In this document: positions 10,382-47,430 of the stretch, piece by piece
Layout: every line of letters starts with the position of its first letter
Position numbering within the stretch: position 1 is the first letter of the stretch
NCBI GenBank assembly: GCA_963751345.1
Contig: CAVVUS010000013.1
Span: forward strand, 86,707 to 150,706
DNA: 64,000 nucleotides
Reading direction: 5' to 3'
DNA from: an uncultured Chloroflexia bacterium
GTDB taxonomy: Bacteria; Chloroflexota; Anaerolineae; B4-G1; SLSP01
Translations under genes and position numbers: made by a program
The notes under the pieces: model-generated
Told to the model about the DNA's origin: nothing
The model's input: the letters and a program-made list of their open reading frames with translations, nothing else
The model's database searches: none

Positions 10382-10396
10382 CGTACTACCCCCTTT

Positions 10397-11705: not shown

Positions 11706-11747
11706 TTCACTAGACGCCCTATCTTGGGACCCTTCCGGGCACGTCCG

Positions 11748-12230: not shown

Positions 12231-12322
12231 GTCAGTCCCCCGCCCAGATGACCCTTCGTGACGTCGACACGAAGGATTCTACCCCTGGGACGGCGGGAAA
12301 GCAATTCGGACGGGGAGTCTGG

Positions 12323-12370
12323 AGTGCCGGGGAGCTTGCGCCGCAGACGGCGTGTACAGTCCTCGGCACT
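12323..12370. repeat. Palindromic intergenic repeat, family C, degenerate copy
   Basis: AGTGCCGGGGA...TCCTCGGCACT; related to 22766-22797. Confidence 0.5.
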
Positions 12371-12454
12371 TGGGAGCACATAACTCGGTCCGAAGCGAAG
12401 TCCGTGTCCTCACCCTGCACTTGCGAGGATTCCGCCCGGTATCGATAGGCCGTC

Positions 12455-12509
12455 CGCGAAATCCGTGCAATCGTCCCGCTTCTGAGCGGCCTAATCCGTG
12501 ATTCAGACA
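12455..12509. repeat. Short bipartite dispersed repeat, copy 2
   Basis: Same two blocks as 271-310, separated here by a CCGCT-TCTG-AGCGG hairpin. Confidence 0.7.
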
Positions 12510-12569
12510 GACGCAGGCGCCACGCGTCGGGCCACGGGATACGCAAGAACCCCCAAGCACCAGCCGGGC

Positions 12570-18625: not shown

Positions 18626-21069
18626 CTAGCGCAGGGAGCGCAGCAAGCAGGTGACGCGCAGGCCACGCTGCGACGGGTTGAGCGCGCCCGGCGTGACCGC
18701 CCGGGCGACGCCGTAGCATTGCGCGTCGCCGGAGGCGCAGGCCGGTGGATCGACGACCCAGTCGGCCAGCGCGTCGTTGCTCCCTGTGCCGGTGAAGACT
18801 GCGCCGTCGTCGGCACCCAGGCGGCTGAACGGATCGTCGAAGGTCACGCCGTCACGGAGGACACCAAACGTGGCCGGGGTGACGGTGCGCCCCTCGGCAA
18901 CAAAGTCGACCCCCACGTCGTCGTCGAACGCCGAGGTGGGCCCGGGCGCGAGCAGCACGACGTCGTCGTTGGCCGTTCCAATGCCGAAGCCCGGGTCGGT
19001 CGTCGCGTCGAGGGCGCCGTTCCCCACGTAGAGCACCATCACGCCATCACGCGCATCCAGGTCGTCAGTGGGGAAGGACGCTGCGTTGAGCGGGCTCTCG
19101 GTTGCCACAATCAGGATGACGGTCCCGCAGGGCACAGAGGCCAGCGTGTCCGACGCGGGCAGGATCAGCGACCCCTCGGTGGTATCCGCCCTGGTGGCGT
19201 TGTCGGTGATGCGCCATCCGCGCAAGTCCTGCCCGCCCGGCGCACGAACCAGGAGCTCCAGCCAGTCTCCCTCCAGAGGTCGCCGGCCGAGCGAGGGGTA
19301 GCGGGTAGCATCGTCATTGATCCATAGCTCGTTGATGATCACGTCGTCCGGTGCCGGCGTGTCTCGAGACACGCGGGGCCGAAAGGAGACCGTGAGCGAC
19401 AATGGGCTCGACAGCGTGAGGCTGATCTCACTCACGCCGGGCGCGATATCGATGGCCGGCGACGACATCCACTCACCGACCTCGTAGCCATCCTCGGGCA
19501 CCGCTACGACGTCCACCGCCGTCTGGCGACTGTACCATCCGTCCCACGCCGTTCCATCCGGTGCCACGTGCGTGCCGTTGACGTAGAGAGCTCCCGCGTC
19601 GGGCGGCGTGACCGCGAGATGCAGGGACGTGTCAATGGACGCTTCCTCGGCGACAACAAGAGGCCGCTCGTCGAGAAAGACTGAAAACGCCCGGACCTCG
19701 TCGTCCCACGCCGGCACGCCGGGCCACCGGCCGCGCTCCTGCCCGTAGGCCTGTGAGAGCGGGCCGGAGAACGCAGCAAGGTGGCGTCCCACCGAGGCGG
19801 GCAGCAGGACCGTGTTCAGCAGATCGGCCAACCGCGCCGTGTAGCGCTGCCGGTAAGCCGGATTGGCCATCAGTGCCTCGTGAACCGTCGTCAGGTCCGG
19901 CGCCTGAGCGACCTCACCGGCCGACCCACCCTCGAACGCCCAGAACCAGCGCCCGCCCTGCGGCTGGACGGCGATGATGCTGCCCGCGGGCAGATCGAAG
20001 AAGTGCGAGAGGATGGCGAAGTCGATCAAGTTCTCGATGTCGACGCGGGCCACAGCCTCGGCGTAGGCTGCGTCGCCAGAGAGATCACTGCTCCCCAGCC
20101 ACTCCAACAGCGCCTTCCAGTCGGCTTTCGAGCCATCGCGGGCATCGCCCTCCTGCACGACGTCGGCCTCGCCGATGCCAAGATCGTCCGCCAGATAGAA
20201 GCGGTCGACGCGCTCGGTCAGCCGGTAGATGCCCCACGAGCTGCCGTTCAGAAAGAGCCAAACGAAGCGTCCCTGTGCCGCGGGCAGGTCGAGGTCGCGG
20301 CAAAGCTCCGCCACCACCTGATCGCGCATCGGCGGACCACGCCATGGCACCCGTCGCGGCGTGGTCCCCCGCCTGGAGGAGCAGCCGCTTGTAGCTCTGT
20401 GCGTCGGCAGCCTGGTCGGGAGGATTCGGGAAGAGCGGCGCGTCGAGCCTGGCCTGTCCGTACTCCTGGCGCAAGTAGAGTCGCAGCGTCTGCTTCGGTG
20501 CGTCGAGGGGCTCCCGCCCATCGATCCGCACGCCGGCGGGCACGGCCCACGTCGCATCGCCGTCGAAGCCGGTGATGTACACAGGCCGCTCCCATGCCTG
20601 CCCGCGCCACGAAGGGTTGGCGAGCAGCCCTCCCTCCTCACCCCAGAGGTCGGCAGGTTCGGCCATGATGGAGATGATGGGCAGCGCAGGCTGGTAGACC
20701 GACGGCATATGAGGCGCTAACGACCGGGCCTGCGACGCCACCATCGACCTCGATGGCACGCAGGACATGCACGCCAGGGGTAGCGCTATCCAGCCGTATC
20801 GGGCGGGCATAAGGGGTGCCGACGGTCGCCGACGGCGTGCTTCCATCGAGCGTGGTGATCACGCGTCCCGTGGGCTCCGAGGGGCGCAGCACCACCGCGA
20901 CGTCGCGTGCGTAGACACCGGGCGGCGGAGACAACGTGACCGCGCCTCCCGCGGTGCCCGCGTCCGAACCCACGGCCTGGCGCGAAAGACCCTCTGCGGC
21001 GAAGAGAAGCACGGCGACAGCCGCCACCAGCCCCCCGAGCCCCACCGCTCTTCGAATCGTGGAGCTCAT
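18626..21069 (-). CDS. Secreted CotH-like protein with N-terminal chitobiase/Fn3-associated domain and C-terminal lamin-tail domain; several frameshifts
   Basis: TLSPPPGVY..TLDGSTP; KQTLRLYLRQEYG; MRDQ..; LFLNGSSWGIYRLTER; DVIINELW..DWLEL..DLRGWRITD (LTD) across three ORFs. Confidence 0.75.
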
Positions 21070-21156
21070 CGCGCGCCAACCCACGCGGGCTCACACCCCA
21101 TAGTCCGGGGCGTCACGCATCTCAACTCCAATCGAGCCCACCGACCGGGTCGCGCC

Positions 21157-23881: not shown

Positions 23882-24199
23882 CGCTATTACCTCCAAGTGA
23901 TCGTCGCTGTTCATATCTGGCGACCCAAATATAGCTTCGTTCTCGATGCAGTCCAAGCTGCTGGTGCTACCGACCTCTTCCCGGCGCGGTGGGCGTGTTC
24001 CAACTTCGGGGCGACACCAGCGGTTGAGGCAATGCGAATCCTGTGAGGATTCTGTAAGAGCCAGGTTCCCGATCAGTACTAAAGGACTGGGCAATAAGGT
24101 GACTCATTTTGACTTCTAGCGAGGGGGTTTTACACTCAATCATGATTTGTTGTGAGGCAGTCTTGGCAGAGCCCCAATGGACAAATCAAGGAGGTTCTC

Positions 24200-25380
24200 A
24201 TGACGAGTACTTCTTCTCGGAGGAACGGGCGTCTTTGGGAAAAGTGCAGCAGCTCTCCTTGCCCGTGAGAAAGAGATCACCGAGATAGCGGTTGCTAGCA
24301 GGCATCTCGATACCGCACAACGAACCGCATCAAATATCGGTGACAAAGCGCGTGCAGTGTGCGTTGACATCAAAGATCTGACCAAGCTTTCGTCTATCGC
24401 AAGTGATTACAGTATCATCGTTAATGCTGCCGGACCCACGTCTGAAACACAGTTGCCCGCGATCCGGGCGGCTATTGAAGCGGGTGTCCACTACTGCGAT
24501 CTGGGTATTCTCGGGCGAACTGCAGAAAAAGCACTCAAACTGAACTCACAGGCGCAGGCGAAAGGTGTGACCGCCATCATCGGTACCGGCTGGTGTGCTA
24601 TTCGGAGTCTGATGACAGTGCACGCCGCACACCAACTTGACGAAATCGACGAGTTGTTCGCCTGCTTTCAATTCGACTACTCCCAAGGAGGATTCTTCTC
24701 GCCTGGAGAATTTCCTCGCCAGGGTGCACAAGCACGGTCGCGTAGAAACCAGCGCTGTAGATATCATGGAAAGTGCACGCGGTCCCGTCAAGATATATCG
24801 AGCAGGAAGATGGCTCTCTATCGAACCCATCGAAGGTCCAATGGAAATCTTTCATCCGGCGGGAACCATGATCACCGCCTATCCTTTGGATTCCTCGGAG
24901 GCGGTAACCTTACCTGACTACCTGCCTGGGGTGAGAAACATATCCATCTTGATGAGCTTCGTCCCGCCTCCTCTTAACGAGCTCATATTGCAGCATGGCC
25001 ACCGGATGGTGAAAGGTGAAATTGATCCGGCCAGTGCAATCGTGGCATTCTATGAAGCAGCTTTGGCGGACAAGGAATGCTGGCTCGCAACTCCACACGG
25101 TTATCCTGGCGGGTGGTGGATGTGGGCTGGTGTGACAGGGCGGAAGAACGGGCGGAAAGCACGATATCTGTGCTGGCCGGCAATGTTTCTGGATTGGACA
25201 AGCGTTCCCCTCATAATCGTAGCTCTGCGTATTCTAAGGGGGGAAGTATCTATGCACGGAGTCCTGCCACCTGAGGCGTGTTTTGAGCTTGGATCTTTCT
25301 TCGAGGAGGTAGCTAAGTATGTGGGCGAAGAACACCGTGGGAAACCCCTGTTGATCGAGCGCTTTGACTGGCTGGAATAG
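24200..25380 (+). CDS. Saccharopine dehydrogenase-like NAD(P)-binding oxidoreductase; frameshifts near 24204 and 24705
   Basis: [12 protein letters not shown] Rossmann motif, [16 protein letters not shown] and GVLPPE; AAGGAGG RBS. Confidence 0.8.
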
Positions 25381-25484
25381 AAGGTGCATATCCGCTAGAT
25401 CACACAAGCGCCTCAGACCTGCTGCCGAAATGGCGAAATGCGGTAAGCTTGGGGCAGGGATTCGCAGCAAGGGAGGGTATACCG

Positions 25485-26453
25485 ATGAAAGCAGTACGTG
25501 TACACGAGTTTGGCGGGCCGGAAGTCATGGTGTACGAGGAGATCGAGACACCCACGCCGGGGCCCGGCGAGGTGCTCGTCAAGATCGAGGCCGCGGGCGT
25601 GAACTACGTCGACGTCTACCGTCGCAAGGGAAACTACAAGGGAGCACTGCCCTTCACCGAGGGCGAGGAGGCCGCCGGGCGCGTGATGGCGGTCGGCCCC
25701 GGTGTCACCACCGTCCGCCCGGGCGATCTCGTGGCCTACGGGACGTCCCGCGGAGCCTATGCGGAGTTCGCCGTCGTTCCCGAAGCGAGCCTCGCCGTGG
25801 TGCCCGAGGGCATTAGCGCGCGCCAGGCCGCCGCGGTGATCCTTCAAGGCATGACCGCCCACTACCTGGCCACCAGCACCTACCCGCTGCAGGAGGGCGA
25901 GTTGGCGCTGATCCACGCTGCAGCCGGCGGCGTCGGAGGGCTGTTGGTACAGATCGCGAAGCGCCGGGGTGCCATCGTCTTCGCAACCTGCTCGACCGAG
26001 CCAAAGGCCGAACGGGTCCGGGGGCTGGGCGCCGACGAGGTCATCCTCTACTCGCAGACCGACTTCCACGCCGAGGTCATGCGGCTCACCGAGGGGGCCG
26101 GCGTTGACGTGGTCTACGATGGCGTGGGCCAGGCCACCTTTATGAGCAGCCTGAACTGCCTCCACCCACGCGGAATGATGGTGCTCTTTGGCGCCGCCAG
26201 CGGGCCTGTGGCGCCGCTCGACCCTCAGGTACTCAACCAAAAGGGGTCGCTCTACCTGACGCGTCCCACCCTTGGCAACTACGCGGCTACCCGCGCCGAG
26301 CTTCAGCAGCGGGCGACCGATCTCTTTACCTGGATGGCGGCAGGGGAGCTTGACGTGCCCATTGACCGGGAGTTTCCATTGCGAGAGGCGGCTGCGGCGC
26401 ACCGGTACATCGAGGACCGCCGCACGATGGGGAAGCTGCTGCTGATTCCGTAG
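25485..26453 (+). CDS. qor: NADPH:quinone oxidoreductase (zeta-crystallin/MDR family)
   Basis: [36 protein letters not shown] and GKLLLIP motifs. Confidence 0.9.
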
Positions 26454-28210: not shown

Positions 28211-28244
28211 AAGAAAAAAGGCTCTGCCACTTCCGGCAGAGCCT
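28211..28244 (-). terminator. Intrinsic terminator inside the deaD 5' leader (attenuator candidate)
   Basis: Minus strand AGGCTCTGCC-ggaagt-GGCAGAGCCT then TTTTTCTT, about 19 nt before the deaD ATG. Confidence 0.75.
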
Positions 28245-28288
28245 CGCTTGATTCTCTGTGTCTCAAAACAGGTGTGTCTGCAGCACCT

Positions 28289-28297
28289 ATTATACCA
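28289..28297 (-). promoter_or_regulatory. Extended -10 promoter of deaD (TGGTATAAT)
   Basis: Perfect TGnTATAAT about 100 bp upstream of the start. Confidence 0.7.
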
Positions 28298-28457
28298 CGT
28301 TTGGCGCGTCTGCCATTTACTCCGCAGGTTCGGGCAACCGCACGCTCCCGTTCGGGAAGCTGCCTGGCGGTCGGTTTGGTCGAATGGTGCAAATGTGATT
28401 CTGAGCCGAAGGTGAGGAGTTCTGCCGCGCTCGATGGCATCTCGCCTCTTTTCGAGC

Positions 28458-29741
28458 TCAGATGCTCCGGCAGACCTTGGCGACCCGCTTGGCCATCGCG
28501 ATGATCGTCAGAATGGGCGGGTTGCCCAGAGATTTGGGCAGCAGGCTGGCATCGGCCACATAGAGGTTCTCGGGAAGCCGGTCGGAATGAAAGCTCACGG
28601 CTTCCTTTGTCGTAAGGGGTAGCATCCCTCCCGGATGGCCGGCGATCGTGGTGCCCAGGAACATGTCCGCGTCACGTGCACCACAATGGTGCAAGATCTC
28701 CCTACAGATCGCGACGCCCTCATCCAACCTACGCCGGTCGTGGTCCGTGAGGCCCTTATCCAACCTATGCCTCGAGATGGTGCCGAGCCCATCGTCCGCC
28801 AGCTTGATCATGATCGACAAGATATCACCGGCGGGCAGCCGCCAGTCCCGGTTGAAGAAGAAACTCAGGTGGTCGAAGTAGGGAGAGAGGATGATGTGCT
28901 CCCGGGTGGAGACGAATGGCATCGTGACATCTCTGTGCTGGTTACATCCAGGCGACCTGGCTGCAACACACAGAACCGGATCGACAAATAGGCGCGGCTC
29001 ACACGCGATGCCGGAGTTCTGCAAAATCACCGGCGTGCCCAGCCCGCCCGCAGCCAGGACGACCAGGTCAGAGGGATAGAGACGACGGCCCCACGCCGTT
29101 CTCGCCCAGACCCCGATCGCGCGTGCACCCTTGATCGCCACGCTCTCAACCTGGCGACCGGTGATCACCTGAGACCCCTTCTCCTCGGCGACCTTGAGGA
29201 ATCGACGGCTGTCCCACTTCACCCCGTTGGGGCAACCCAACTGACACCGACCGCAGTGCATACAGCGCTCATACTCCCCCATCTTGGGCGTCGGCTGCGG
29301 CCCCAGGCCCAGTTCCTCGAAGATCGCGAACAACCGCCGGGTGACCTCGCGCCACTTTGCCTGGTGCGCAGTGGTCACCGGCACCTCGCGATAGACCTCC
29401 TCGAACTCAGCGTCCAGGTCGATCCCCAGGGCTCTCAGATCCGGGTCCAGGCGCAGAGCGCTTCCTGTGCACAGGGTGGTCGTACCGCCCAGCCCGACGC
29501 CGTTGACCAGAATCATCTCATCGGCTGCGCGCCGGGTCTTGAATGCCGGCATGGCCAACCGGATCTCGCGCTCGTCGAAGAGCAAGCCGAACTGTCTCAA
29601 CTTCTCCAGCTCTCCCAGCCCCGCGCCAAGAGGTCTGAATTCCCTGCCGGCCTCCAGCACCGTCACATCATAGTGGCCCTGGAGTTCCTTGGCCACGGTC
29701 GCGCCACCCGCGCCACTGCCCACCACGATGGCCTTCCTCAC
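28458..29741 (-). CDS. GMC family FAD oxidoreductase
   Basis: VVGSGAGG, GLGGTT, CMHCGRCQLGC, LAAGGLGTP, HPGG and NLYVADAS..GNPPILT motifs. Confidence 0.88.
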   Translation of the reverse strand: MRKAIVVGSGAGGATVAKELQGHYDVTVLEAGREFRPLGAGLGELEKLRQFGLLFDEREIRLAMPAFKTRRAADEMILVNGVGLGGTTTLCTGSALRLDPDLRALGIDLDAEFEEVYREVPVTTAHQAKWREVTRRLFAIFEELGLGPQPTPKMGEYERCMHCGRCQLGCPNGVKWDSRRFLKVAEEKGSQVITGRQVESVAIKGARAIGVWARTAWGRRLYPSDLVVLAAGGLGTPVILQNSGIACEPRLFVDPVLCVAARSPGCNQHRDVTMPFVSTREHIILSPYFDHLSFFFNRDWRLPAGDILSIMIKLADDGLGTISRHRLDKGLTDHDRRRLDEGVAICREILHHCGARDADMFLGTTIAGHPGGMLPLTTKEAVSFHSDRLPENLYVADASLLPKSLGNPPILTIIAMAKRVAKVCRSI

Positions 29742-30290
29742 CGATCGCTCTCCTTCGGCGGCTGCAGCATCGCCCTGCAGCGCGGTCGGCCCTCCGTAAG
29801 CCGCTCCGAGAACGCAAGCCGGCGGCCCCCCGAAAGGCCCGAGAAAACCCCATCGTCCAGGGCAGAGATCAGGTCACAGATCGGACCGGAGTAGACCTCG
29901 GCTAAAGTAGCAGCGTTTCACCGTCACATTGCCCTGGAGATCGCCCTCCATGTCAACCCCGATTGCCCGGTAGAGTATCTGCGCCAGCCTCATCGTCTCC
30001 GCCGTCCTATGGATGCGCGACCATCTCCGAAGCCTTGCGCCCAGGGGATAGGCGTTCCGGTAAAGCTGCGTCTTGAGAGCAGCTATGTCATACCCGTCCC
30101 TGAACGCCTTATCGGCCTGCTCCATGGTGAACAGGGCGTAGCTCTGCAGGCCCGCATCGTGGGAAAGCCGGGACAACGCGGGGCCCGCACACCCGAAGGC
30201 ATCCGCCGTGGCCTCACACAGCTCTGCCAGGAGGACACGACGAATCCATACCGGGAGGCCGGTGGGAAGCATACCCAGCAGGATATTCAT
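29738..30290 (-). CDS. Hypothetical protein, ATC-hydrolase/V4R-like Cys pattern; frameshift near 29900
   Basis: VTVKRCYFS continues in another frame as ICDLISALDDGVFSGLSGG..LTEGRPRC; stop overlaps the GMC start. Confidence 0.6.
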
Positions 30291-30315
30291 CGTCAGTAGC
30301 CTGCGGTGTTGGCGA

Positions 30316-30702
30316 TCAACAAGACCCCGAAGTCATACAGCAGGGCGCGACAGCCACATCCAGCGCTTTGATCAGCACCAAAAGGATGCCGGCGAGGATG
30401 GATATGCCCACAACACCGGGAAGCCGGTCCCGAATGGGCTCTCGCCGCGTCCGGCCCTCGACGAATGGCATCCCCAGGCCGGCTCGGCTGGCGAACCAAA
30501 GGCCGGCGGCTCCCAAGGCTGCATAGATCAGCAGGTTGATACCCGCGCTGAGAAGAAGACTCAAGATGCCGGGGGACGCCGTAGCCGTTGTCGTCAGGAG
30601 ATACGGCTGGATGGCCAACACCGCCGGAACGAGCAGCCCTACCAGAAGCAGGTAGGCCCTCACGTTGAATGGTCGCTTGACCTGCAGCAGAAGGTGTCTC
30701 AT
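30316..30702 (-). CDS. Small hydrophobic membrane protein, possibly a truncated remnant
   Basis: 128-aa ORF with three TM segments and GLWFASRAGLGMP; C-terminus looks truncated. Confidence 0.45.
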   Translation of the reverse strand: MRHLLLQVKRPFNVRAYLLLVGLLVPAVLAIQPYLLTTTATASPGILSLLLSAGINLLIYAALGAAGLWFASRAGLGMPFVEGRTRREPIRDRLPGVVGISILAGILLVLIKALDVAVAPCCMTSGSC

Positions 30703-30780
30703 CGTCTCCTCACTTATACTCGAAAAGTGCCTCTGGGTACCCTGCGGTCTCGTCCGTCGTGGGACGCGGCAGCTCTTCCA

Positions 30781-33654
30781 TTACTGTATCCCTGCTTCGC
30801 CGACGTGGAGGATGGATCGCGATGGCCTGACGCCATCGTAGAGCCCCTCCAGCACATCCTCCAGCCGCTGGGCGATCGCCTGACGTCTCAGCTTGAGATT
30901 GCCGGTGAGGTCGCCGGCCTCGACCGAGAGATCGTTTGCCAGCACCGCCCAGCGCTTGACCTGCTCGGGGTGCGACAAGCCGCGGTTGATCTGGCCGACC
31001 AGGCGGTCGATGCGTTGCCCGGCGTGCGCATCCAGCACCTTGTCGTGGATCCATAGCAGGGCGACACAGTAGGGTCGTTGCTCGCCGACAACCATCGCCT
31101 CGGTCACGCCGGGGATCTCCCTCAGACGCGACTCTACCTGTGCCGGCTGGATGTATTTCCCGTACGACGTCTTGATCAGCTCCTTCTTGCGCCCGGTCAG
31201 GATCAGGCTCCCCTCCGGCGAGAGAGTGCCCAGGTCGCCGGTCGCCAGCCATCCGTCCCGGAAGGGCTGGTCGGTCTCGTCCTCCCCTCCGAAATAACCT
31301 GCCATCACCTGCGGTCCGCGCACCAACACCTCGCCGTCCTCGGCCACGCGGATCTCGGTCTGGGGAAGCGGTTGGCCTACCGTCGCCAGATGATTCGCTC
31401 CGAGGCGGTTCAGTGTGACGAGCGGAGCTTCCGTCATTCCGTAAGCGTTGTGAATCTCGATGCCCAAGTCTCGGAATTCCTTGAGCAGCCCCTCGCCACA
31501 GGGCGCCGAACCGACGATCAGTTGGGCACAGTGGTCGAGGCCGGCCTTGCGCAAGGTCCGCCGGCGAACCAGGGCCCCCAGAGCGCGCTTCTGGAGTTGG
31601 TCCACAGGCCGCTCGCTCGGCAGACTCAGATATCGGCGCCCAATCGGATTGGCAGCCAGTGCCTCCCAGATCTTCTCATAGATGCGCGGCACGGAGAAGA
31701 AGATCGTCGGACGCACGCGGGGCAGCATCCGCTGGACATCCTTCAGGTCCTCCAGGAAGTAGATGTTGACCGGCGCCGGCACGTAATACGGGCAGTAGGT
31801 CGCCAGGATCCCTTCGACGACGTGGTTCATGGGCAGGAAGGATAAGTAGCTGGCGGGCCTGTTGCGCGGCCCCCAGGGCATCAACGACGCCATAGTCTGC
31901 CCTATCCAGCGCAGGTGCTGGTGCTGGAAGCTCACCCCTTTGGACTGGCCCGTGGTGCCTGAGGTATAGCGCAGCGTGGCCAGATCGCCGAACTCTACCG
32001 GCGCCTGGAGCGGCACCGAGCGCCCCTCTCCCCGGGCCAGGAATGCATCCCAGGTCATCACCTGCGGAATCGGACCTGCGGGCACAGGGCCCCGGCAGAA
32101 GGAGACGATCGGCAGGTCCGTCCGGATTTCGCCCAGTCGCTCCAGGATTTTCGGGGCACCCACGAGCAGCAGCCGCGCACCACTGGCCGAGAGGATGTGG
32201 TCGATCTCCTCCGGTGGGCTGGTGTAGTACAGCGGGACGCTCACTGCCCCGATCAGGCCGATGGCTGTGTCGAGGGTCAGATAGCGCGCGCTATTGAGGC
32301 CGACAAGCGCGACCCGTTCTCCCGGCAAGACACCGAGCGCGACCAGTGACCCGGCAGCCGCCAGGATCTCGCGCCGCATTTCGCCGCCGCTGTGCTTGAC
32401 CAACCTCCCCTCCACGATGTCATAGTAGCTGAGCGGCCGGGTCCTGCTTCGAAGGCGGACGAGAAGCTGCTCGTGGACCGTCCGTTCCGAGCCGTGCATG
32501 AAATTGTGGTCAACGGCGTACGCAAGTAGGTGGGGCACGAACTCGCGCCAGTCCAGCCGGTAGGGACCCAACAGCCGGTCGACGTTGTCTCGCTGGAACT
32601 GCTTGCGCTCACTGAAGTAGGGCAGGAGCGCAAGCATGCTGCCGAGCTCGCGCAACCAGGGCTTCCGGCGGCCCTGCGCCGGGGTCACGGCGTGGTCCGC
32701 GGATCCTCGGTCGGACCGGACGTGCTTCCGGGGCAGCGGCAGACGGATGAATAGCGGCCTGGGCAGGCGCATCCCGAGGCGCTCGCGCGCCCAGGCCCGC
32801 ACCAGCCCTAGCAACTCGCCCACCTGGGGCAGCGACCCGGTGGGCGCCGTAAGGTGAAAGGTCAGCCCTTCGGCCTCGGAGCAGAAAGTCAGGCGTGCGA
32901 TGGCCTCGGCCACATAGTCCACCGGCACAATGTTGACCCGTAGAGATCGGCCTGCTGGCACGATGGGCAGCTTGCCGGTGAGATAGAGCCGCAGTGGGAA
33001 GTAGACTGTGTTGAAGGTCCTGATCTCTCCGGTGTCCGCGGCACCCACGATCATCCCCGGGCGGAAGACGGAGACCGGCAGCTTGCTCCTCACCGCCTGC
33101 ACCAGACGTTCGGCTTCGTACTTGCTCGCCTCGTACGCGCAGTTGAAGCCATAGGCTCCGGTGAGGTCCGCCTCTGATATCGAGCCACTCCGCCCACCCG
33201 CTACGTAGGCAGTGGAGACATGCGCATAGCGCTCCAGGCCGTGATCGAGATGCGCAAGATGGGCCAGCTCCAGCATGTTGGCCGTCCCCTGCACGTTGGT
33301 CTTGCGCAGTTCGTCGATCGGCCCATCCAGGCGGAGATCGGCCGCGCAGTGGATAATGTGCGTGACGCGTTGCAGCAGGCGGACATAGGTCGCTTCATCC
33401 AGACCCAGATGTGGCGATGAGACGTCGCCCGGCAGTACCTCAACTCGCACTCCTTCTGTGACGGCACTCGCCAGTTCCGGCCAATCCCACCAGGCGCGGG
33501 ACAGACGGTGGGCTGCTGCCGTCGGGTCTCCGGCGCGCACCAGGGCTATGAGGATGAGACCCCTCTCGTGGACGAGCCTCCGGGCAATCTGGGCTCCCAG
33601 AAAGCCGGTCGCGCCCGTGAGCAGCACACAGCTATGCAATGTGCTGTCGCTCAT
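30781..33654 (-). CDS. Fusion of extended-SDR acyl reductase (NAD_binding_4) and long-chain acyl-CoA synthetase-like adenylation domain
   Basis: TGATGFLG, HCAA, HVSTAYV and YEASK in the N-half; YTSGTTGQSKG, SFLPMNH, NAYGMTE, TGDLG and GRKKELIK in the C-half; single uninterrupted 957-aa ORF. Confidence 0.88.
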   Translation of the reverse strand: MSDSTLHSCVLLTGATGFLGAQIARRLVHERGLILIALVRAGDPTAAAHRLSRAWWDWPELASAVTEGVRVEVLPGDVSSPHLGLDEATYVRLLQRVTHIIHCAADLRLDGPIDELRKTNVQGTANMLELAHLAHLDHGLERYAHVSTAYVAGGRSGSISEADLTGAYGFNCAYEASKYEAERLVQAVRSKLPVSVFRPGMIVGAADTGEIRTFNTVYFPLRLYLTGKLPIVPAGRSLRVNIVPVDYVAEAIARLTFCSEAEGLTFHLTAPTGSLPQVGELLGLVRAWARERLGMRLPRPLFIRLPLPRKHVRSDRGSADHAVTPAQGRRKPWLRELGSMLALLPYFSERKQFQRDNVDRLLGPYRLDWREFVPHLLAYAVDHNFMHGSERTVHEQLLVRLRSRTRPLSYYDIVEGRLVKHSGGEMRREILAAAGSLVALGVLPGERVALVGLNSARYLTLDTAIGLIGAVSVPLYYTSPPEEIDHILSASGARLLLVGAPKILERLGEIRTDLPIVSFCRGPVPAGPIPQVMTWDAFLARGEGRSVPLQAPVEFGDLATLRYTSGTTGQSKGVSFQHQHLRWIGQTMASLMPWGPRNRPASYLSFLPMNHVVEGILATYCPYYVPAPVNIYFLEDLKDVQRMLPRVRPTIFFSVPRIYEKIWEALAANPIGRRYLSLPSERPVDQLQKRALGALVRRRTLRKAGLDHCAQLIVGSAPCGEGLLKEFRDLGIEIHNAYGMTEAPLVTLNRLGANHLATVGQPLPQTEIRVAEDGEVLVRGPQVMAGYFGGEDETDQPFRDGWLATGDLGTLSPEGSLILTGRKKELIKTSYGKYIQPAQVESRLREIPGVTEAMVVGEQRPYCVALLWIHDKVLDAHAGQRIDRLVGQINRGLSHPEQVKRWAVLANDLSVEAGDLTGNLKLRRQAIAQRLEDVLEGLYDGVRPSRSILHVGEAGIQ

Positions 33655-35006
33655 GCTGCCGCCGGAATGGGCACGACCGGACTGGACACAGGCTCCCAGC
33701 CCTGCGCCCGGACGAATTCCCTGAGCAGCGAGCGATTGCGCCGAGCGTCACCCAGGTGTCTCTCATAGCCGCAACGCAACGCATCTCGGACGCACGATGG
33801 GTCCTCCAGCAACCACTCGACGCGCGGCCGTAAGGCTTCGTAGACGTCACCGGCATTCGGCTCGACGAAGAAATCCTCGTAGAGCCCCAGCTCCTGATAG
33901 ATGGTCTGCAGACGCAGGTCGTGGCCGACAGCGATCTGCGGGACCTGCGCCGCCAAGGAGAGCACGCAGGCGTGATAGCGGGAGGTCACCAGCAGGTCAA
34001 GACTGCGCAGGATGGAGGCCATCTGCGAGGCATTGTACTCACGGGAGCAGAAAATCCGCGCTCGGTCGGGATGGGTCATATAGCCGTGCACCTTTTTGAG
34101 CAGGGCCTCATCGAGGGATTCCATGCCGATCAGCGCAACCGGCTTGCCGTACCGTGCGATCACCTCATCGGCTAGGGCCGCGTAGCCGCGCGCCAGCGTA
34201 TCTGTGGCACGGGTACGCTCGGGCGAGCGCGTGAAGTAGTACGGCCACTTGTAGCAGTTGCCCTTGGGACCCCATGGCCGCATGATGACCGGCCATTGGT
34301 AGAAGTCCACCAGCGCCATACCCACCACGCCGCGCCAGGCCTCGGGCCAGGTCCTGGAGAACAGGCCCTTGTCGGCGGGGTCAGGCCGAAAGGTGAAAGC
34401 GTTATCGGCGGTCACGTCCACGGGCGCGGTGACGCCGAGGGAGCGCAGACGCTCCGCAGCCGCCGCCGAGCGGGTGATGATCAGCGAGGTCTTGCTGGCC
34501 TCACGGCGCACCAGTTGCCGGTTGAAGGTCGACTTCACCTCACCCGCGTCCACCGCGTAGGCCAAACAAGGCTTGCCCATTTCGTGAGCGCAGCGTGTCG
34601 TCCACAGATAGGCCCACAGCATCGCGGACGTCCAGGTATCCATATAGGTGCTCCCCTCCACCAGCATCACCAGATCGCTCTCACGAACGAGGCGGCGAGC
34701 AGCAGCGAAGAAGAGGGTCGGCATGGGGGCGATGCGCAAGTTCGGCCCCTCCTTGATGTACCGCCGCAGGTTTGGCGGATTAATGCTGGGGACCGTGATC
34801 ACAGCTTGTGGACCCAGCACCTCGCGCACATTCTCAATGTCGGCTTGGAGCAATGCCTCTGCTCCGGTGTTGTTTGCCCCGTTGTAGCCGAGCATCAGCA
34901 CCCGCGGCGCAGGGCGCGTAGCAGTCGGCGGCGCGCTTCTCGCCCCCTCAGGCCATTGGACCGGTGATCCGGCCAACCCACTCGAACCGGAACTTGGAGT
35001 TCTCAT
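33651..35006 (-). CDS. Polysaccharide pyruvyl transferase family protein
   Basis: GYNGANNTGAEA, LIITRS, TADNAF and LVTSRYHACVLS motifs; stop overlaps the next start (ATGA). Confidence 0.8.
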   Translation of the reverse strand: MRTPSSGSSGLAGSPVQWPEGARSAPPTATRPAPRVLMLGYNGANNTGAEALLQADIENVREVLGPQAVITVPSINPPNLRRYIKEGPNLRIAPMPTLFFAAARRLVRESDLVMLVEGSTYMDTWTSAMLWAYLWTTRCAHEMGKPCLAYAVDAGEVKSTFNRQLVRREASKTSLIITRSAAAAERLRSLGVTAPVDVTADNAFTFRPDPADKGLFSRTWPEAWRGVVGMALVDFYQWPVIMRPWGPKGNCYKWPYYFTRSPERTRATDTLARGYAALADEVIARYGKPVALIGMESLDEALLKKVHGYMTHPDRARIFCSREYNASQMASILRSLDLLVTSRYHACVLSLAAQVPQIAVGHDLRLQTIYQELGLYEDFFVEPNAGDVYEALRPRVEWLLEDPSCVRDALRCGYERHLGDARRNRSLLREFVRAQGWEPVSSPVVPIPAAA

Positions 35007-35042
35007 ATCGTCCCTCTATGCTTTCCTACCTGACTTAATCAT

Positions 35043-35100
35043 AGTCTAGCGCGGCGCGAGGTGGGTCGCATCTGCCAAAGGGGATACTCGCGGGTTATTT
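35043..35100 (-). promoter_or_regulatory. Conserved 35-bp operator/-35 plus -10 (TAGACT), copy 1
   Basis: TCGCATCTGCCAAAGGGGATACTCGCGGGTTATTT at 35066-35100; 17-bp spacer to the -10. Confidence 0.8.
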
Positions 35101-35107
35101 GCACGGT

Positions 35108-35608
35108 TTAGAAGCGAGATCGATACGGAATCAGCCGGTCAACCCTTGCGACGTAATCCTGATACTCCTTGCCAAAGACATTCGCGAGGTGCTTCTCCTC
35201 TGCGCCGATGAAGATCAGCACGCCTGCATATAAGAAGACTGAAGGGACGAAGTAGACCCAGGTGAGCGTGATCAATGCGACGGCCGGAAGGACGAATAGG
35301 GCGACACTGGCGTAGATGGGATTGCGGACGACGCCGTAGGCGCCGGTGGTGACCAGTCTGCCTTTGGGGAAGCCGGCGAGCAGCTGGACGACCGCCGCTC
35401 CCCACAGGACCAGCCCCGGAACGAGTAACACATATCCCACGGGTCTCAGAAAACTGACGCTCTCGGGCAGTGCTGCGACCCGGGGTAGATACGTGCTGAC
35501 CAGGATAGCGCCTACCAACGACGGGAGCATAAAGAGAATGATCTTCCCACCCTGCCCCACGATGCCCATACCGTGCTGCTTCCTGAAGATGCCTGCTATA
35601 GCGTTCAT
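35108..35608 (-). CDS. Isoprenylcysteine carboxylmethyltransferase/PEMT-like membrane methyltransferase
   Basis: LVTTGAYGVVRNPIY and EEKHL..FGKEY..Y..RV.RLIP motifs. Confidence 0.85.
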   Translation of the reverse strand: MNAIAGIFRKQHGMGIVGQGGKIILFMLPSLVGAILVSTYLPRVAALPESVSFLRPVGYVLLVPGLVLWGAAVVQLLAGFPKGRLVTTGAYGVVRNPIYASVALFVLPAVALITLTWVYFVPSVFLYAGVLIFIGAEEKHLANVFGKEYQDYVARVDRLIPYRSRF

Positions 35609-35706: not shown

Positions 35707-37209
35707 CTATTCGCCAACAACAAAAACCGGAGGCTGGACCTCCTTCAGGCAGTTGGTGTCCACCCCCTCAACCGTGCCGAGTTCAACGAACTGGGCCTCG
35801 ATGGACCACCGACAACGGATCTCTGAGCCATCGGACAGCCAGTGCCCCTGGTAGGGCTCAACCAGCGCCAAGGAGTTCGGCCATAGGTCCTTCGACCCGG
35901 CCATATTCTCGGGTGGGCACTGTGGATCCCATGCGCCATTCAGGATCAGGACGGGGACATCCGAGTGTGGCTGAGTGCTCGTGCCTTCCGGCATTTCGCC
36001 TCGCGGCGTAAGCTGGCAGGCAAAGGCGTGGTTCTGGGCCAGGCTGACGTACCAGCCCTTGAGATAGCTGCCTTCACTGAGTTCGGCCACCACGTCAGGC
36101 TCGAAGACGGCCCACTTCTCGTAACAGCGAATCACGTGCTCCATCACCTGTGAACCCCAATCGCCCGGCCCATACCTGAGGTAGAAGTTGACGATGCCCG
36201 TCCACTCGTCGTCTGCGTAGGCTCTGTGGACCAGGCCCGGTAGGCCGGCGGCTTGCCTTGAGTCCAGCATCATCACGCGCAGCACCTCGGCCAACAGATC
36301 ACCGGTGAACGTGATGCTGTCGGAGGCCGGGTCAGCCGGTTCTATGACCTTCGGTTCCCGGCCGAGGCGTTCGAGCAGCCCGGCAAGCTCTGTCCGCAGC
36401 CCAGGGTACGCCGTATGGCAGGCGCTATCCGCCTCGCACTGCGCGAGCAGCAGGTCCATGGCTCTCTGGCCATTCCTCGCCCACAGCTCAAAAAGCGGCG
36501 TATCGAGCAACGTTCCCCCCGAGAGAATGACGCTCCGTACATGCTCTTCGTGCTGACGCAGGTAATACTGGGCCGCTGTGGCACCGTAGGAGTGACCAAA
36601 CAGGTTGATCTTGTCGTAGCCGAGTGCCTCGCGGACCTCATCCAGATCATCCATCGCTACCGACGTCGTGTAGAAGCGCGGGTCCATGTGCTGGTCGATC
36701 TCTTCGAGCACCCCGCTAGCCCATTGCTCTGCTGTGCGCTCCATCTCGGCCTGCGAGAGCCCGGAGAGATCCGGGCCCGGCGGGATCACCACCCGGTTCG
36801 AGCCCCCCGTGCCCCGCTGGTCGACAAAGACCAGGTCGTGGGCATAGGCGAGATCATACGGGAACTGCGGCCCCTTGGCCGCATCTTCGGTGGCCGCGAC
36901 GCCCGGGCCCCCGGCCAGGTAGAAAATCGGGTCGGCGGCCGGGTTCGGGCTCTGCGCCTTGATAACGGCTACGCGAAGATCGATCGTGCGGCCCATGCTC
37001 GAAGTGCGATCTTCGTAGACCCGCAGGGCGCCGCAGAGCGCCGGCGTACTACCAAGGGTACAGGGCTCAAGATCGATGGTGGACCCTGGCGTTGGTGCAG
37101 CGGTTGCAGGCGCTATCGCAGCAGCAGACGGGCCACAACCCATCAGCAGGCTGACCCCCACGAGGCAGATACGACAATAGGTGAAACGCCGCTCACCACA
37201 CTTGCGCAT
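35707..37209 (-). CDS. Lipoprotein alpha/beta hydrolase (TAP-like peptidase/esterase)
   Basis: Lipobox LMGC; LAGGPG, DQRGTG, GHSYG nucleophile, NGAWDP and GH motifs. Confidence 0.85.
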   Translation of the reverse strand: MRKCGERRFTYCRICLVGVSLLMGCGPSAAAIAPATAAPTPGSTIDLEPCTLGSTPALCGALRVYEDRTSSMGRTIDLRVAVIKAQSPNPAADPIFYLAGGPGVAATEDAAKGPQFPYDLAYAHDLVFVDQRGTGGSNRVVIPPGPDLSGLSQAEMERTAEQWASGVLEEIDQHMDPRFYTTSVAMDDLDEVREALGYDKINLFGHSYGATAAQYYLRQHEEHVRSVILSGGTLLDTPLFELWARNGQRAMDLLLAQCEADSACHTAYPGLRTELAGLLERLGREPKVIEPADPASDSITFTGDLLAEVLRVMMLDSRQAAGLPGLVHRAYADDEWTGIVNFYLRYGPGDWGSQVMEHVIRCYEKWAVFEPDVVAELSEGSYLKGWYVSLAQNHAFACQLTPRGEMPEGTSTQPHSDVPVLILNGAWDPQCPPENMAGSKDLWPNSLALVEPYQGHWLSDGSEIRCRWSIEAQFVELGTVEGVDTNCLKEVQPPVFVVGE

Positions 37210-37360: not shown

Positions 37361-38485
37361 CTAAGCTAGGATACCGAGCTGCCTGGCGCGCGCCACCGCT
37401 TCTGTACGATTGGCGACGTCGAGCTTGCGATAGATGCTCGCCGTGTGAGCTTTGACCGCTGAGCCCCTCCCACTTCTGGCAAAGCTCGAGGCCCGAGGAC
37501 ACAAGCTCGCGAGCCTCGTCCAGCTGGTTTCGCTCTCTCAGTAGATCGCCATAGTCCCTTTGAGTAGCGTCCGGCCAGCGTAGGTAATGGCCCTCCTCCT
37601 GCGCCAGCAGCTGCAGGCAACGCTCGAATAGTTCCGCCGCACGAACGAGCTGGCCTTGATGGGTCGCGATCCGCCCCAGCGCGTCCATGATGCTCGCGGT
37701 GTAGAAGGTGAAGTGATTCGCTTGGCTCAGGAGGGCCTCTTCCCACACGGCGTTGACCTGGTTGTAGTCCCCCTCATAGGAGTGGGCAACGCCTCGCTGC
37801 GCAAGAGCTTCGACCATCGCCTCGCTCTCCGCGGGCACCAGACGTGTCACCTGTTGGCTGGCCTCGATAATCCACGCAGTGTCTCCCAGTAGCGAAGCGG
37901 TGTTGCACTGGATGACGTAGAGAATGCCCAGGAGCTCCTGCTGACCTTTCACAGCCGGCGTGGTCTGGAGGTCACGTTCGGTAGCTCTCAGCCGCTCCTC
38001 GATCCCGGTCAGTTGACCGGTCTCGATCGTGGCAACAGCTTTGACCACGCTGGGCCTCGAACCAGCCTGCGGCCCGTTGGTTGGTGGATGCCCATACGGT
38101 TTGTGCCTGAGAACTTGCCAATGAATCCGCGAGCGTCCTCGCGATCGCGCATAGAGAGCGCCGCCATCTGCAACCCGGCGATCCACCCTTCCGTACGCTC
38201 TTCGAGCGCTGCGACCGAGTCGGGCTCCAACCCGAGGCCCATAACGTCGTTTAGGACCTGGCTGTCCGCCTCATCCAAAGAGAGCCAGGCTACCGGCGTT
38301 TCGGAGCCTGTAACACACGCTGCCACCAGGGCAGTCTTTCCGAAGCCCGCGGGCGCGGTAACCAACGTCAGAGGGCCACGCAGGCCTTGCGCACTCCGCG
38401 CCTGGAGTCGCGGTCGGGGGACGAGCTCTCGCCGGGTGAAGGGCAGATGTAGCTTCGTACGGATGAGCGCGTCAGACGCTTCCAT
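37361..38485 (-). pseudogene. Internally deleted MalT-like LuxR regulator
   Basis: Retains LIRTKLHLP, APAGFGKT, RTEGWIAGLQMAALSM, a TPR-like fragment and VKAHTASIYRKLDVANRTEAVARARQLGIL*, but spans 1.1 kb versus 2.8 kb for the intact paralog. Confidence 0.85.
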
Positions 38486-44658: not shown

Positions 44659-47430
44659 TCAGGAGAGGATACGAAGCTGTCGTGCGCGGGCCACCGCTTC
44701 CGTGCGGTTGGCGACGTCGAGCTTGCGGTAAATGCTGGACGTGTGCGCCTTGACCGTGCCGGCGGCGACGACAAGCTGCCGGGCGATCTCCTTGTTGGTG
44801 CTCCCCAGCGCGATGAGGTGGAGGACCTCCATTTCGCGGTCGGTCAGTGGGTCGACCAGAGGGCTCATCGGCAAGGCACTTTCCTGAGTCGGCGCGCCCA
44901 CCTGCGGTTCGGCCTCAAAGTGCGAGAGCAGGTGTGTGGTGTAGTCTCGGGCATTCCCGGGGACGGCGCGAGCCAGCCAGTGGCCCAACAGCAGCTTCAT
45001 AGGCTGGCCCTCATCCAAGAAGAGACGCACGTAGCCTCCGGGTTGGGCCAGGTCCAGGCTGCGACCCAGAGCTGCCAGAGCCTGATCCGTAGCACGGATC
45101 CGCTGCAGCGCGATCGCCTGGAGGAGCAGGATCTCAATGACGCGAGCAGTCCTCCCGGACGACTCGGCTGGCGTTGCCAGGCGCGATAGGAGCGCGATAG
45201 CCTGGTTGGGCCTGTCGAGCGCGATCGCGACGCGTGCCCGGGTGATCTGGATCAGTTCGACCTCGAATCTGGACACGTCGTCCGGGCTCGACGGCTCTGT
45301 GTGATCTGCGGCCCAGCGCGCGGCACTTGCCAGGTCTCCTTCAGCCAGCTCTATCTTGATGCTGGCGACCTCAGCGGCATATCGGGCCTCGGAGAAGACG
45401 GGCTGCGTCCGCACGACCTCCACCGCGCTACCCACGGCTCCCGCAGCATCCGCGATCCGCGCTTGAGCCGCCCATATGCGCGCCATCGTGATATGGGCCA
45501 GGACCAGGTCATCGGACTTTCCCCAGAACGGGAGCTGCGCCAAGGCCCGCTGGACATGGTCCTCGGCGGCGTCCAGGTCATTCCGCTCACACAGCACTTC
45601 CGCGAAGCCCATTTCCACAAGGGCCTTGGCGCCAAGATGCTGTCCGCTGGCCTCAGGGATTGCGCGGGCGGCGACCTGGTAGGTGTCGTACGACTCTCCG
45701 AGAAGGCCCTGGACAGCATAGAGTCGCGCCAGGAGACAGGCCGCAGCCACGGTGTTGATCACCGCCCCCATCGCTCTGCCCAGCTCCACCGTCTCCTGCA
45801 AGATCGGTTGGGCCCTCGCATAGTCGCCGCTCAGGAAGTACTCGTATCCCAGCGTGATGTGCGTGTCCAACTGCAGGGCGAGGTTGCTGTCGGGCACGTC
45901 CTGTCTGGCTGCCAGGCAATACGCGATGGCCCGCCGGATATCGCCGCGCATCGCCGTCACCCGGCTCTTGACATAGGCCCACAGTCCCCGCATGGCACGG
46001 GCGTCGGGCTCGCCCTCCGTGGGAATTCGCGTCTCCGCCACGTCGAGCAGAGCATCAGCCTCGTCCAGCTCCCCAAACCAGGAATGGCTGTAGGCCTCGT
46101 AAATACAGAGCCAGGGCCGGCTGTGGACGAGTTCCTTGCTCAGCGTGCCGGTCCAGGCACGCAGCCAGGCCTGCTCGCCTCGTCTGACCAGCTCCATGTA
46201 GTTCTGCTCGATGCAGCGCTCGACCCGTTCATCGTCCGCGGCCTCCGACGCATAGACAATGGCCTCAAGGATCGACCCGTGCTGGGCGTGCCAATCTGAA
46301 GCGCGGGTCCTGAGCTGGGCCAATCGCTGTGCGCCGAGGACCCTCTGAAGCTGCGCGCGGAGCAGATCGGCGAACAGGTGGTGGTAGCGGTACCAGATCC
46401 GCTCATCATCCAGGGGCACGAGGAAGAGATTGGCGCTCTCGAGGTACTCCAGGTTAGCCGCCGATCGACCCACCGACAGCGAGATTGGGTAAGCCGAGGT
46501 GGGGTCGCGCGACGTTGCCGCTTCCCACTCGTCTTCCAGGACGGCATCGCAGAGCGGCGCGCTCAACCGCTCCAGGATCGACGTTCTCAACAGGAACTGC
46601 TGGATCTCCTCGGATTGGTTGGCCAGCACCTCCTCCAGCAGATAGTCCAGGATATAACGATTCGTGCCGGAGAATCCCTCGATGAACGAAGTCACGTCCT
46701 CGCGGTTGCGCATAGAGAGGGCCGCCATCTGCAGGCCGGCGATCCACCCTTCCGTGCGCCCTTCGAGCATCGCGATCGATTCCCCATCCAGACCCAGGCC
46801 CATCACCTCATTGAGGAACCGGGTTGCCTCCGGCTCTGTGAAACCGAGATCGGCAGCCCGCAGCTCCACGGTCTGTCCGCGCGCTCGCAGACGGGCGAGG
46901 GGAAATGAAGGGTCCGATCGGGTGGCTATCAGCAGGTGGAACGACCTCGGACAGTGCTCGAGCAGAAAGGCAACGATGCTATGCACCTCCTGGCTGTGGA
47001 TGAACTGGTAGTCATCCAATACCAGAACAATGTCCTCGGTCGCAGCATCCAGGTCGTTGATGAGGCTGGTGAGAATGAGGGCCTGGGGCACCCGCTGTGC
47101 CGCGTCCAAAAGCTGTGCGGCCTCGCGCCCCACCGCGGCGTCAGCGGCCTGCAGAGCAGAGGCAAGGTAGCGGAGGAAACGTCCCGGCTCATTGTCATTC
47201 CTGTCCAAAGACAGCCACGCGACAGGCATGCCGCAACCGGGGACACACGAGGCCACCAACGTAGTCTTGCCGAAGCCCGCGGGGGCAGTGACAAGAGTGA
47301 GCGGGCCGCGTAGCCCCTCCGCTACCCGCGCCTGGAGCCGCGGGCGAGCGACCAGCCCCGGCCGGATGTAGGGCAGGTGCAGCTTGGTGTGAAGCAGTCG
47401 ATCAGCGGTCTGCACGAAGGCCCTCCTCAT
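44659..47430 (-). CDS. MalT-like STAND ATPase-TPR-LuxR transcriptional regulator
   Basis: APAGFGKTT Walker A, LVLDDYQ Walker B, TEGWIAG, YRYHHLFA and C-terminal LTDREMEVL..TVKAH..IYRKL HTH. Confidence 0.93.
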   Translation of the reverse strand: MRRAFVQTADRLLHTKLHLPYIRPGLVARPRLQARVAEGLRGPLTLVTAPAGFGKTTLVASCVPGCGMPVAWLSLDRNDNEPGRFLRYLASALQAADAAVGREAAQLLDAAQRVPQALILTSLINDLDAATEDIVLVLDDYQFIHSQEVHSIVAFLLEHCPRSFHLLIATRSDPSFPLARLRARGQTVELRAADLGFTEPEATRFLNEVMGLGLDGESIAMLEGRTEGWIAGLQMAALSMRNREDVTSFIEGFSGTNRYILDYLLEEVLANQSEEIQQFLLRTSILERLSAPLCDAVLEDEWEAATSRDPTSAYPISLSVGRSAANLEYLESANLFLVPLDDERIWYRYHHLFADLLRAQLQRVLGAQRLAQLRTRASDWHAQHGSILEAIVYASEAADDERVERCIEQNYMELVRRGEQAWLRAWTGTLSKELVHSRPWLCIYEAYSHSWFGELDEADALLDVAETRIPTEGEPDARAMRGLWAYVKSRVTAMRGDIRRAIAYCLAARQDVPDSNLALQLDTHITLGYEYFLSGDYARAQPILQETVELGRAMGAVINTVAAACLLARLYAVQGLLGESYDTYQVAARAIPEASGQHLGAKALVEMGFAEVLCERNDLDAAEDHVQRALAQLPFWGKSDDLVLAHITMARIWAAQARIADAAGAVGSAVEVVRTQPVFSEARYAAEVASIKIELAEGDLASAARWAADHTEPSSPDDVSRFEVELIQITRARVAIALDRPNQAIALLSRLATPAESSGRTARVIEILLLQAIALQRIRATDQALAALGRSLDLAQPGGYVRLFLDEGQPMKLLLGHWLARAVPGNARDYTTHLLSHFEAEPQVGAPTQESALPMSPLVDPLTDREMEVLHLIALGSTNKEIARQLVVAAGTVKAHTSSIYRKLDVANRTEAVARARQLRILS

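Follow-up and report, generated by a model that had tools for sequence, protein, structure and literature searches.

A four-gene operon combining a reductase-ligase fusion, a pyruvyl transferase-family protein, a small predicted V4R/Bet3-fold protein and a GMC flavoprotein, found in anaerobic bacteria and methanogens and on a strain-specific island of a Chloroflexota bacterium

Five open reading frames (ORFs) lie side by side on the minus strand at positions 28458-35006 of a 64,000-nucleotide stretch (the window) of contig CAVVUS010000013.1 from an uncultured Chloroflexia bacterium. Do they belong together, and what could they do? In the original prediction, made from the window alone, they were described as five co-directional genes of an operon of biosynthetic type. 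Minus-strand ORFs are indeed present at all five positions, but only four of them are conserved, and the remaining one is a fragment of a protease gene absent from 37 of 37 related loci. The conserved cassette consists of four genes, designated A, B, D, and E, and A-B-D-E is a real, conserved operon, found again in many methanogens and in anaerobic bacteria. All the enzyme families are familiar, while no description of the combination was found. No described pathway with this gene set was found in full-text literature searches, and NCBIfam gave no equivalog above its cut-off for the cassette proteins; the original prediction likewise knew of no described pathway with this combination.

Gene A (33651-35006, minus strand, 451 residues; ORF and Pfam) encodes a GT-B-fold transferase of the CsaB-like PS_pyruv_trans family. 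Gene B (30781-33654, minus strand, 957 residues; ORF and Pfam) encodes a thioester-reductase fused to an acyl-AMP/CoA ligase. Gene D (29738-30290, minus strand) encodes an ATC_hydrolase-like protein with a predicted V4R/Bet3 fold, and carries a +1 frameshift near 29899; the ORF list contains only its N-terminal part (29874-30290, minus strand), and the whole gene was recognized through a two-frame alignment to its orthologue at the bacterial locus L004. Gene E (28458-29741, minus strand, 427 residues; Pfam and alignment) encodes a short GMC-type flavoprotein with the motif CxxCGxCxxGC. The Pfam families named in the original prediction (PS_pyruv_trans for A, NAD_binding_4 and AMP-binding for B, GMC_oxred_N and GMC_oxred_C for E) were all recovered, and the family-level activities it listed fit these domain matches. 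Of its two proposed translationally coupled junctions, the one at 33651/33654 is real, as the ORFs of A and B share 4 nt there. The other, at 29738/29741, where the GTG start of E overlaps the stop of D, holds only if D is read across the frameshift, with its C-terminal frame ending at 29738. Similarly, the "Cys-motif protein" of the prediction corresponds to D, which has conserved C-terminal cysteines but is frameshifted in the window copy.

Conservation of the gene order was analyzed with a scan based on B, using one genome per species, which yielded 37 loci. Locus content was determined by tblastn with the window proteins, together with a second search for D using the L004 and L031 queries. 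The bacterial loci are from Chloroflexota, Actinomycetota, Acidobacteriota, Spirochaetota, Atribacteria, Fermentibacteria, and a Syntrophothermus bin, and the archaeal loci are from Bathyarchaeia, Methanomassiliicoccales/Thermoplasmata, and Methanobacterium. The complete A-B-D-E set in the same order was found at 19 of the 37 loci. Six others (L003, L008, L010, L021, L024, and L032) are cut by contig ends, and their content is consistent with the cassette. All 20 loci fetched from Methanobacteriaceae contain A-B-D-E in order. The co-occurrence of the four genes is far above chance, and their order is the same in two domains of life. Co-occurrence elsewhere had been set beforehand as one of two tests of the original prediction, and it is found both at these 19 loci and throughout the Methanobacteriaceae set.

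The junctions inside the cassette are also tight elsewhere. The stop of D and the start of E overlap by 4 nt at 11 of the 19 complete loci. At L023, D and E are fused in frame, although this locus is from a long-read bin and the fusion should be treated with caution. Two database proteins, P0023 (329 residues) and P0024 (1125 residues), have B or its C-terminal subdomain fused to D; each is a single-member cluster, and a lost stop codon is possible. At L031 (positions 10001-12846) of Methanobacterium ferruginis, B is present as two overlapping ORFs, 10001-11488 and 11485-12846, which points to a frameshift or else to a true separation of the reductase and ligase halves in a cultured strain.

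The distribution of the cassette is patchy. B was found in none of the 40 genomes of the genus, family, and order of the window (completeness 81-100%), and only 2 of 400 other sampled genomes of its phylum contain cassette-type A. In the family of M. ferruginis (Methanobacteriaceae), 59 of the 151 genomes sampled, among them the query genome, have cassette-type A. A quick maximum-likelihood tree comprised 39 B sequences; 20 rows with truncated or frameshifted sequences were left out of it, and 21 rows carried a flag for unusual composition. The B proteins encoded without the other cassette genes ("solo" B) form one clade (SH-like approximate likelihood ratio test, SH-aLRT, 93). The bacterial cassette B proteins form another clade (SH-aLRT 97), in which the window copy stands beside L004 and L005, and the Methanobacteriaceae B proteins form a deep and diverse clade of 21 rows (SH-aLRT 99). 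A-B-D-E is probably a horizontally mobile four-gene operon. A role in a methanogen cofactor pathway, such as the side chains of coenzyme B or methanofuran, was considered and rejected; the cassette is absent from 92 of the 151 Methanobacteriaceae genomes and present in bacteria. One Methanobacteriaceae genome, G537, has three identical-scoring copies of cassette-type A on contigs C2, C7, and C11, representing either a duplicated region or assembly redundancy.

Protein A belongs to PF04230, with 66.2 bits against the gathering cut-off of 25.3 and an alignment over profile positions 1-279 of 280. It shares this family with the pyruvyl transferases CsaB and WcaK and scores below the cut-offs of both equivalogs: 102.1 bits against 213.1 for CsaB (TIGR03609, E-value 3.6e-29) and 26 against 727 for WcaK. 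Relatives of A align from residue 36 on, and the conserved part begins near the GTG codon at 34901. The AlphaFold2 model of A has a GT-B fold, with a predicted local distance difference test score (pLDDT) of 89. A could alternatively be an ordinary CsaB-like pyruvyl transferase for cell-envelope glycans, and its position next to B, D, and E would then be without functional significance. The best named match of A, the S-layer protein CsaB, speaks for this explanation, but the score is less than half of the cut-off, the ORFs of A and B overlap by 4 nt, and no other glycan-synthesis genes are conserved nearby. The four-gene order is moreover shared by 19 + 20 loci, which represent both domains and at least eight phyla, and this explanation is considered very improbable.

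Unlike the genes for CsaB, WcaK, and ChtnH, gene A of the cassette lies in no polysaccharide or polyketide synthase context. ChtnH, a member of the PF04230 family, is proposed in a preprint to form a ketal with a diol on a long alkyl chain; a ChtnH homologue is described there as esterifying a lipid hydroxyl (bioRxiv 10.1101/2025.10.24.682833). The ketalisation is the same kind of reaction as the one proposed here for A, and the two proteins therefore provide a precedent for non-sugar acceptors in the family of A.

Protein B carries the Pfam domains NAD_binding_4 (residues 12-252), AMP-binding (419-788), and AMP-binding_C_3 (826-941). PP-binding was not among the nine Pfam families matched at E-value ≤ 0.01. 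The best solved relatives of B are carboxylic acid reductases (CARs; E-value 1.8e-40; PDB 5mso and 5msc) and fatty-acyl-CoA synthetases, and its best NCBIfam matches are long-chain-fatty-acid--CoA ligases. In the translation, the C-terminal region of B reads like the long-chain acyl-CoA synthetase signature. As in B, adenylation and thioester-reductase domains are joined in one CAR polypeptide, and the chemistry expected of a CAR, conversion of an acid to an aldehyde with ATP and NADPH, may be shared. CARs require a phosphopantetheinyl carrier domain and have the order adenylation-carrier-reductase, whereas in B the reductase precedes the adenylation domain and no carrier domain is found. Consistently, B scores 203.1 bits against the cut-off of 1300 for the CAR equivalog NF041592.

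Another multidomain enzyme comparable to B is ElbD of ether-lipid biosynthesis in Myxococcus xanthus, which reportedly activates and reduces a fatty acid and is said to carry a carrier domain and an acyltransferase domain. By its architecture, ElbD resembles B in that activation and reduction of a fatty acid would be the entry to a fatty-alcohol-derived lipid. The elb operon as described differs from the cassette in that it lacks genes for a pyruvyl transferase, a V4R-like protein, and a GMC enzyme.

Protein D was characterized mainly through its predicted structure. Its AlphaFold2 model (pLDDT 93) was compared by VIA-align with 48,161 chains, where the 50th rank has a Z-score of 4.4. The nearest folds are the phenol-sensor domains of DmpR (Z 10.5) and PoxR (Z 10.2), the V4R protein MJ1460 (Z 9.8), and Bet3/TRAPPC3 (Z 9.7), followed by H-NOX domains. 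These Z-scores of 9.7-10.5, over 132-149 residues, place the predicted model within the V4R/Bet3/H-NOX fold. Foldseek returned the same families with E-values around 4e-4, led by a TRAPPC3 protein crystallised with covalent palmitate. D thus models as a V4R/Bet3-type fold for hydrophobic-ligand binding, and it would share with V4R, Bet3, and H-NOX proteins a fold that binds small hydrophobic ligands. It differs from DmpR, PoxR, and TRAPPC3 in being free-standing and coupled to a flavoenzyme, and is neither a domain of a regulator nor a TRAPP subunit.

At the sequence level, D appears to be at best a marginal member of PF14196, the L-ATC hydrolase family. The archaeal orthologues at L001 (37.2 bits), L031 (37.4 bits), and L030 (33.5 bits) exceed the cut-off of 28.1, while neither the intact D of L004 nor the N-terminal part of the window D matches it, and the bacterial copies have no Pfam match at E-value ≤ 1e-5. 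In the Atlas, D falls among clusters named after ATC hydrolase, with V4R and TRAPP as weaker leads. Nothing points to thiazoline hydrolysis by D. In an alignment of 18 D sequences, C127, C138, D145, and C171 (L004 numbering) are invariant. This set of Cys and Asp residues may form a zinc site, presumably similar to that of the phenol sensors.

Protein E is a GMC family member, with 62.9 bits against 23 for GMC_oxred_N and 26.1 against 24.6 for GMC_oxred_C. It shares both GMC domains with the short form MftG and aligns with the MftG-type profile TIGR04542 (425 residues) from end to end, residues 4-422 against positions 2-423. The scores are far below the cut-offs (53.7 against 400 for TIGR04542 and 47.1 against 387 for TIGR03970), and the cassette E has no mycofactocin context. 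E differs from MftG, AlkJ, and long-chain alcohol oxidases by its CxxCGxCxxGC motif and its obligate small partner D. The four cysteines of the motif (C160, C163, C166, and C170) and the C-terminal H369 are invariant among 18 E sequences, and weak Fer4 (ferredoxin-type) matches are seen at residues 152-182, on the CMHCGRCQLGCP stretch. A complex prediction for D and E, using the L004 pair with alignments, gave a score of 0.00, which speaks neither for nor against binding.

What reaction sequence could these four proteins support? The favoured reading, with the balance about even, is that A-B-D-E modifies a free carboxylic acid of lipophilic character, which would most likely be a long-chain fatty acid. 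In this scheme, B would first adenylate the free acid and probably form a CoA thioester, the latter being probable because B has no carrier domain. The N-terminal thioester-reductase of B would then reduce the thioester with NAD(P)H to an aldehyde or an alcohol. A, as a CsaB-like pyruvyl transferase dependent on phosphoenolpyruvate (PEP), would cap the hydroxyl group or groups of the reduced product. D may hold the hydrophobic chain and work with the translationally coupled E. GMC enzymes oxidising long-chain alcohols exist, and E, a predicted FAD enzyme whose four-cysteine motif is a candidate iron-sulfur site, may finally carry out a flavin oxidation independent of oxygen, which would suit strictly anaerobic hosts. 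We infer the substrate, each chemical step, and the order of the steps from the families and folds involved; the product may be a pyruvylated or ether-type lipid.

Several observations weigh against this scheme. Among the matches listed by Foldseek, the solved folds nearest to the model of A are nucleotide-sugar GT-B enzymes and not pyruvyl transferases, and a PDB sequence search with A returned no chain at E-value ≤ 0.01; therefore, the donor could be other than PEP. CARs, the closest solved relatives of B, also accept aromatic acids, so that the substrate may be other than a fatty acid. Having both a reductase and a dehydrogenase in a single pathway appears redundant, except where the two work at different positions. 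A need for fatty acids is not known in methanogens. At 12 of the 37 loci, including L015 and L016 with short flanks, B is present without A or E nearby and in unrelated contexts, and therefore B can work without the other three genes. Finally, the frameshift in D means that the window copy may make nothing.

The neighbours of B at eight of the solo B loci have nothing in common, and no conserved partner was found among them. One complete Bathyarchaeia genome has a solo B and also a full cassette elsewhere. At L019 (6494-9841), in a Chloroflexota bin, the solo B lies directly downstream of genes for an aldehyde:ferredoxin oxidoreductase and a ThiF-family protein. This neighbourhood, seen at one locus only, fits an aldehyde as the product of B.

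Genes beside the cassette at other loci bear on the nature of the substrate. At five bacterial loci (L007, L009, L022, L036, and probably L023), a protein of ~790 residues is encoded 3' of E; it has two cyclic-nucleotide-binding (cNMP-binding) domains, an NTE P-loop-like domain, and a patatin phospholipase domain, according to Pfam for L009 and to BLAST clustering for the others. A TetR gene is found near 13, and an FMN_red gene near 7, of the 20 Methanobacteriaceae cassettes by tblastn, and both were confirmed by Pfam at L026, L030, and L031. FMN_red is also encoded upstream at L002, L005, L007, L022, and L023. At L004, an intact MalT/LuxR-type regulator (908 residues, TPR_MalT and GerE) is encoded upstream of A. 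The patatin and TetR neighbours, together with the predicted fold of D, point to a lipophilic acid or a lipid as the substrate.

The same neighbours (TetR, FMN_red, and patatin) fit lipid remodelling and inducible detoxification alike. The cassette could accordingly be an inducible module for detoxification or salvage, in which toxic exogenous lipophilic or aromatic acids are reduced and conjugated; the product would then serve disposal and would have no structural or signalling role as a lipid. Long-chain fatty acids inhibit methanogens. The regulators next to the cassette (TetR at archaeal copies, at three loci by Pfam and 13 of 20 by tblastn, and MalT/LuxR at L004), the frequent neighbourhood of an NADPH-dependent FMN reductase, and the patchy, transfer-prone spread (0/40 relatives, 2/400 in the phylum, and an island here) are in line with such a role. 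Disposal through a PEP-consuming transferase would, however, be expensive, no conserved efflux pump gene lies next to the cassette, and the deep, diverse Methanobacteriaceae clade of B suggests long vertical residence and not a transient resistance gene. Pure detoxification is considered unlikely, and conversion of an acid to a modified lipid is ranked above it.

A more specific form of the lipid proposal would be that methanogenic archaea and anaerobic bacteria use the cassette to make an undescribed lipid class, in which a fatty alcohol or diol carries a pyruvate ketal or an enol-pyruvyl ether. D would then be more than a holder of the ligand: a Bet3-like protein S-acylated on an invariant cysteine, replacing the carrier domain that B lacks. 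The reductase would receive the thioester from D, and E would afterwards receive the product from it. This elaboration is speculative and improbable.

What distinguishes the cassette is its combination, for which no description was found: a carrier-less reductase-ligase fusion and a pyruvyl transferase-family protein occur together with a protein of predicted V4R/Bet3 fold, which is coupled to a GMC flavoenzyme bearing a cysteine motif. Bacteria and archaea alike keep this set intact. Methanobacteriaceae include cultured strains, so the function is directly testable. If the substrate is a fatty acid, the cassette would represent a pathway by which methanogens specifically metabolise fatty acids, and such a route would bear on archaeal lipid biology and possibly on the tolerance of methanogens to inhibitory fatty acids.

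For the window genome the message is smaller: the operon is recently acquired cargo of a 10.4-kb island, and this copy seems to be inactivated in part. The genome G002, of the same genus, is collinear with the window on both sides, with 85-98% nucleotide identity in the flanks, and has 55 bp between the counterparts of window positions 28316 and 38738. The two flanks also adjoin each other in G015, and the segment 28317-38737 (10,421 bp), which holds the whole cassette, is therefore strain-specific. The island contains E, D, the protease fragment, B, A, a methyltransferase gene, a hydrolase gene, and three regulator remnants. No direct or inverted repeats were found at its ends, and Pfam scans of the island ORFs revealed no integrase or transposase.

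The regulator remnants (37364-38485, minus strand) were recognized by tblastn with the MalT/LuxR-type regulator of L004: residues 1-76 correspond to 38485-38258 (67%), residues 190-253 to 38284-38096 (69%), and residues 878-908 to 37456-37364 (90%). A full-length MalT/LuxR-type regulator, 45% identical to the L004 cassette regulator, is encoded outside the island at 44665-47415 on the minus strand.

The protease fragment, ORF C (30316-30702, minus strand, 128 residues), was identified by homologue comparison as a truncated 5' fragment of a CPBP/CAAX protease gene. It aligns only to the first ~125 residues of 18 homologues of 310-332 residues. PF02517 is carried by these homologues only, and ORF C has no Pfam match and is not a full-length catalytic protein. 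It is unique in the genome and sits in an insert of ~490 bp between B and D that is found at no other locus. In contigs of related strains from the runs X1, X2, and X3, the match to the window ends at 30321-30342, the lower edge of the insert. An assembly chimera at this point was considered unlikely, as both sides belong to one cassette in canonical order.

The first reading frame of D opens at 30290 and ends at 29874; the C-terminal third, which is conserved and contains the cysteines, continues in another frame to the stop at 29738. Against the intact, 183-residue orthologue of L004, the two frames show 56% and 65% identity and meet near 29900. A contig from run X3 spanning 29618-29983 has one base fewer at 29899, exactly the point where the frame of D shifts. 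With the frameshift in D, a foreign fragment between B and D, and the regulator in pieces, the window copy appears to be decaying and is probably losing its function.

Alternatively, the window copy could be intact and functional, the frameshift at 29899 being an assembly error and the CPBP fragment a harmless insertion. The source genome is a bin, 93% complete and 5.6% contaminated, and A, B, and E, ~5.5 kb of coding sequence, are free of frame breaks. The near-identical runs X1 and X2 (99%-alike pieces) cover neither the frameshift nor any of 29744-30191, which leaves room for an assembly error. On the other hand, the extra base lies outside any homopolymer run, the X3 contig lacking the base is from a different strain, 90-96% alike, and the regulator remnants and the truncated CPBP gene are two further independent signs of decay on the island. 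An intact copy is therefore doubtful, although this possibility retains some weight, and the reading of a decaying copy is preferred.

Two further genes of the island lie upstream of A on the minus strand. A PEMT/ICMT-like membrane methyltransferase (PF04191, 33.5 bits) is encoded at 35108-35608. An alpha/beta hydrolase with a TAP-like C-terminus (Abhydrolase_1 and Abhydrolase_4) and a lipobox-like LLMGC at its N-terminus is encoded at 35707-37209. The prediction had noted this membrane methyltransferase and lipoprotein hydrolase, which are both present; their association with the cassette did not hold, as tblastn found ORF C, the methyltransferase, and the hydrolase each at 0 of the 37 related loci. 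The hydrolase was also not found in five genomes of the same genus. Neither of the two upstream genes belongs to the conserved cassette.

A motif-bearing promoter in front of the cassette had also been suggested. A scan for sigma-70 patterns over 10.8 kb yielded 3 sites against 1.9 expected, and no site upstream of A, with none at 35006-35108, so this part of the prediction was not confirmed. On the other side of the cassette, pattern scanning detected the only strong hairpin (28245-28218) and TATAAT-type site, within 28218-28316 on the minus strand. Both are kept in G002, which is without the island. The region was rejected as a cassette terminator; it is the native upstream region of a DEAD-box helicase gene.

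Upstream of the helicase region, a CotH kinase-like protein and an ORF with a chitobiase C-terminal domain are encoded at 18626-21084 on the minus strand, unrelated to the cassette. Two plus-strand ORFs at 24637-25380 and 25364-25816 match no Pfam family. The lowest G+C content of the window is at 24001-26000, 0.571 against ~0.65.

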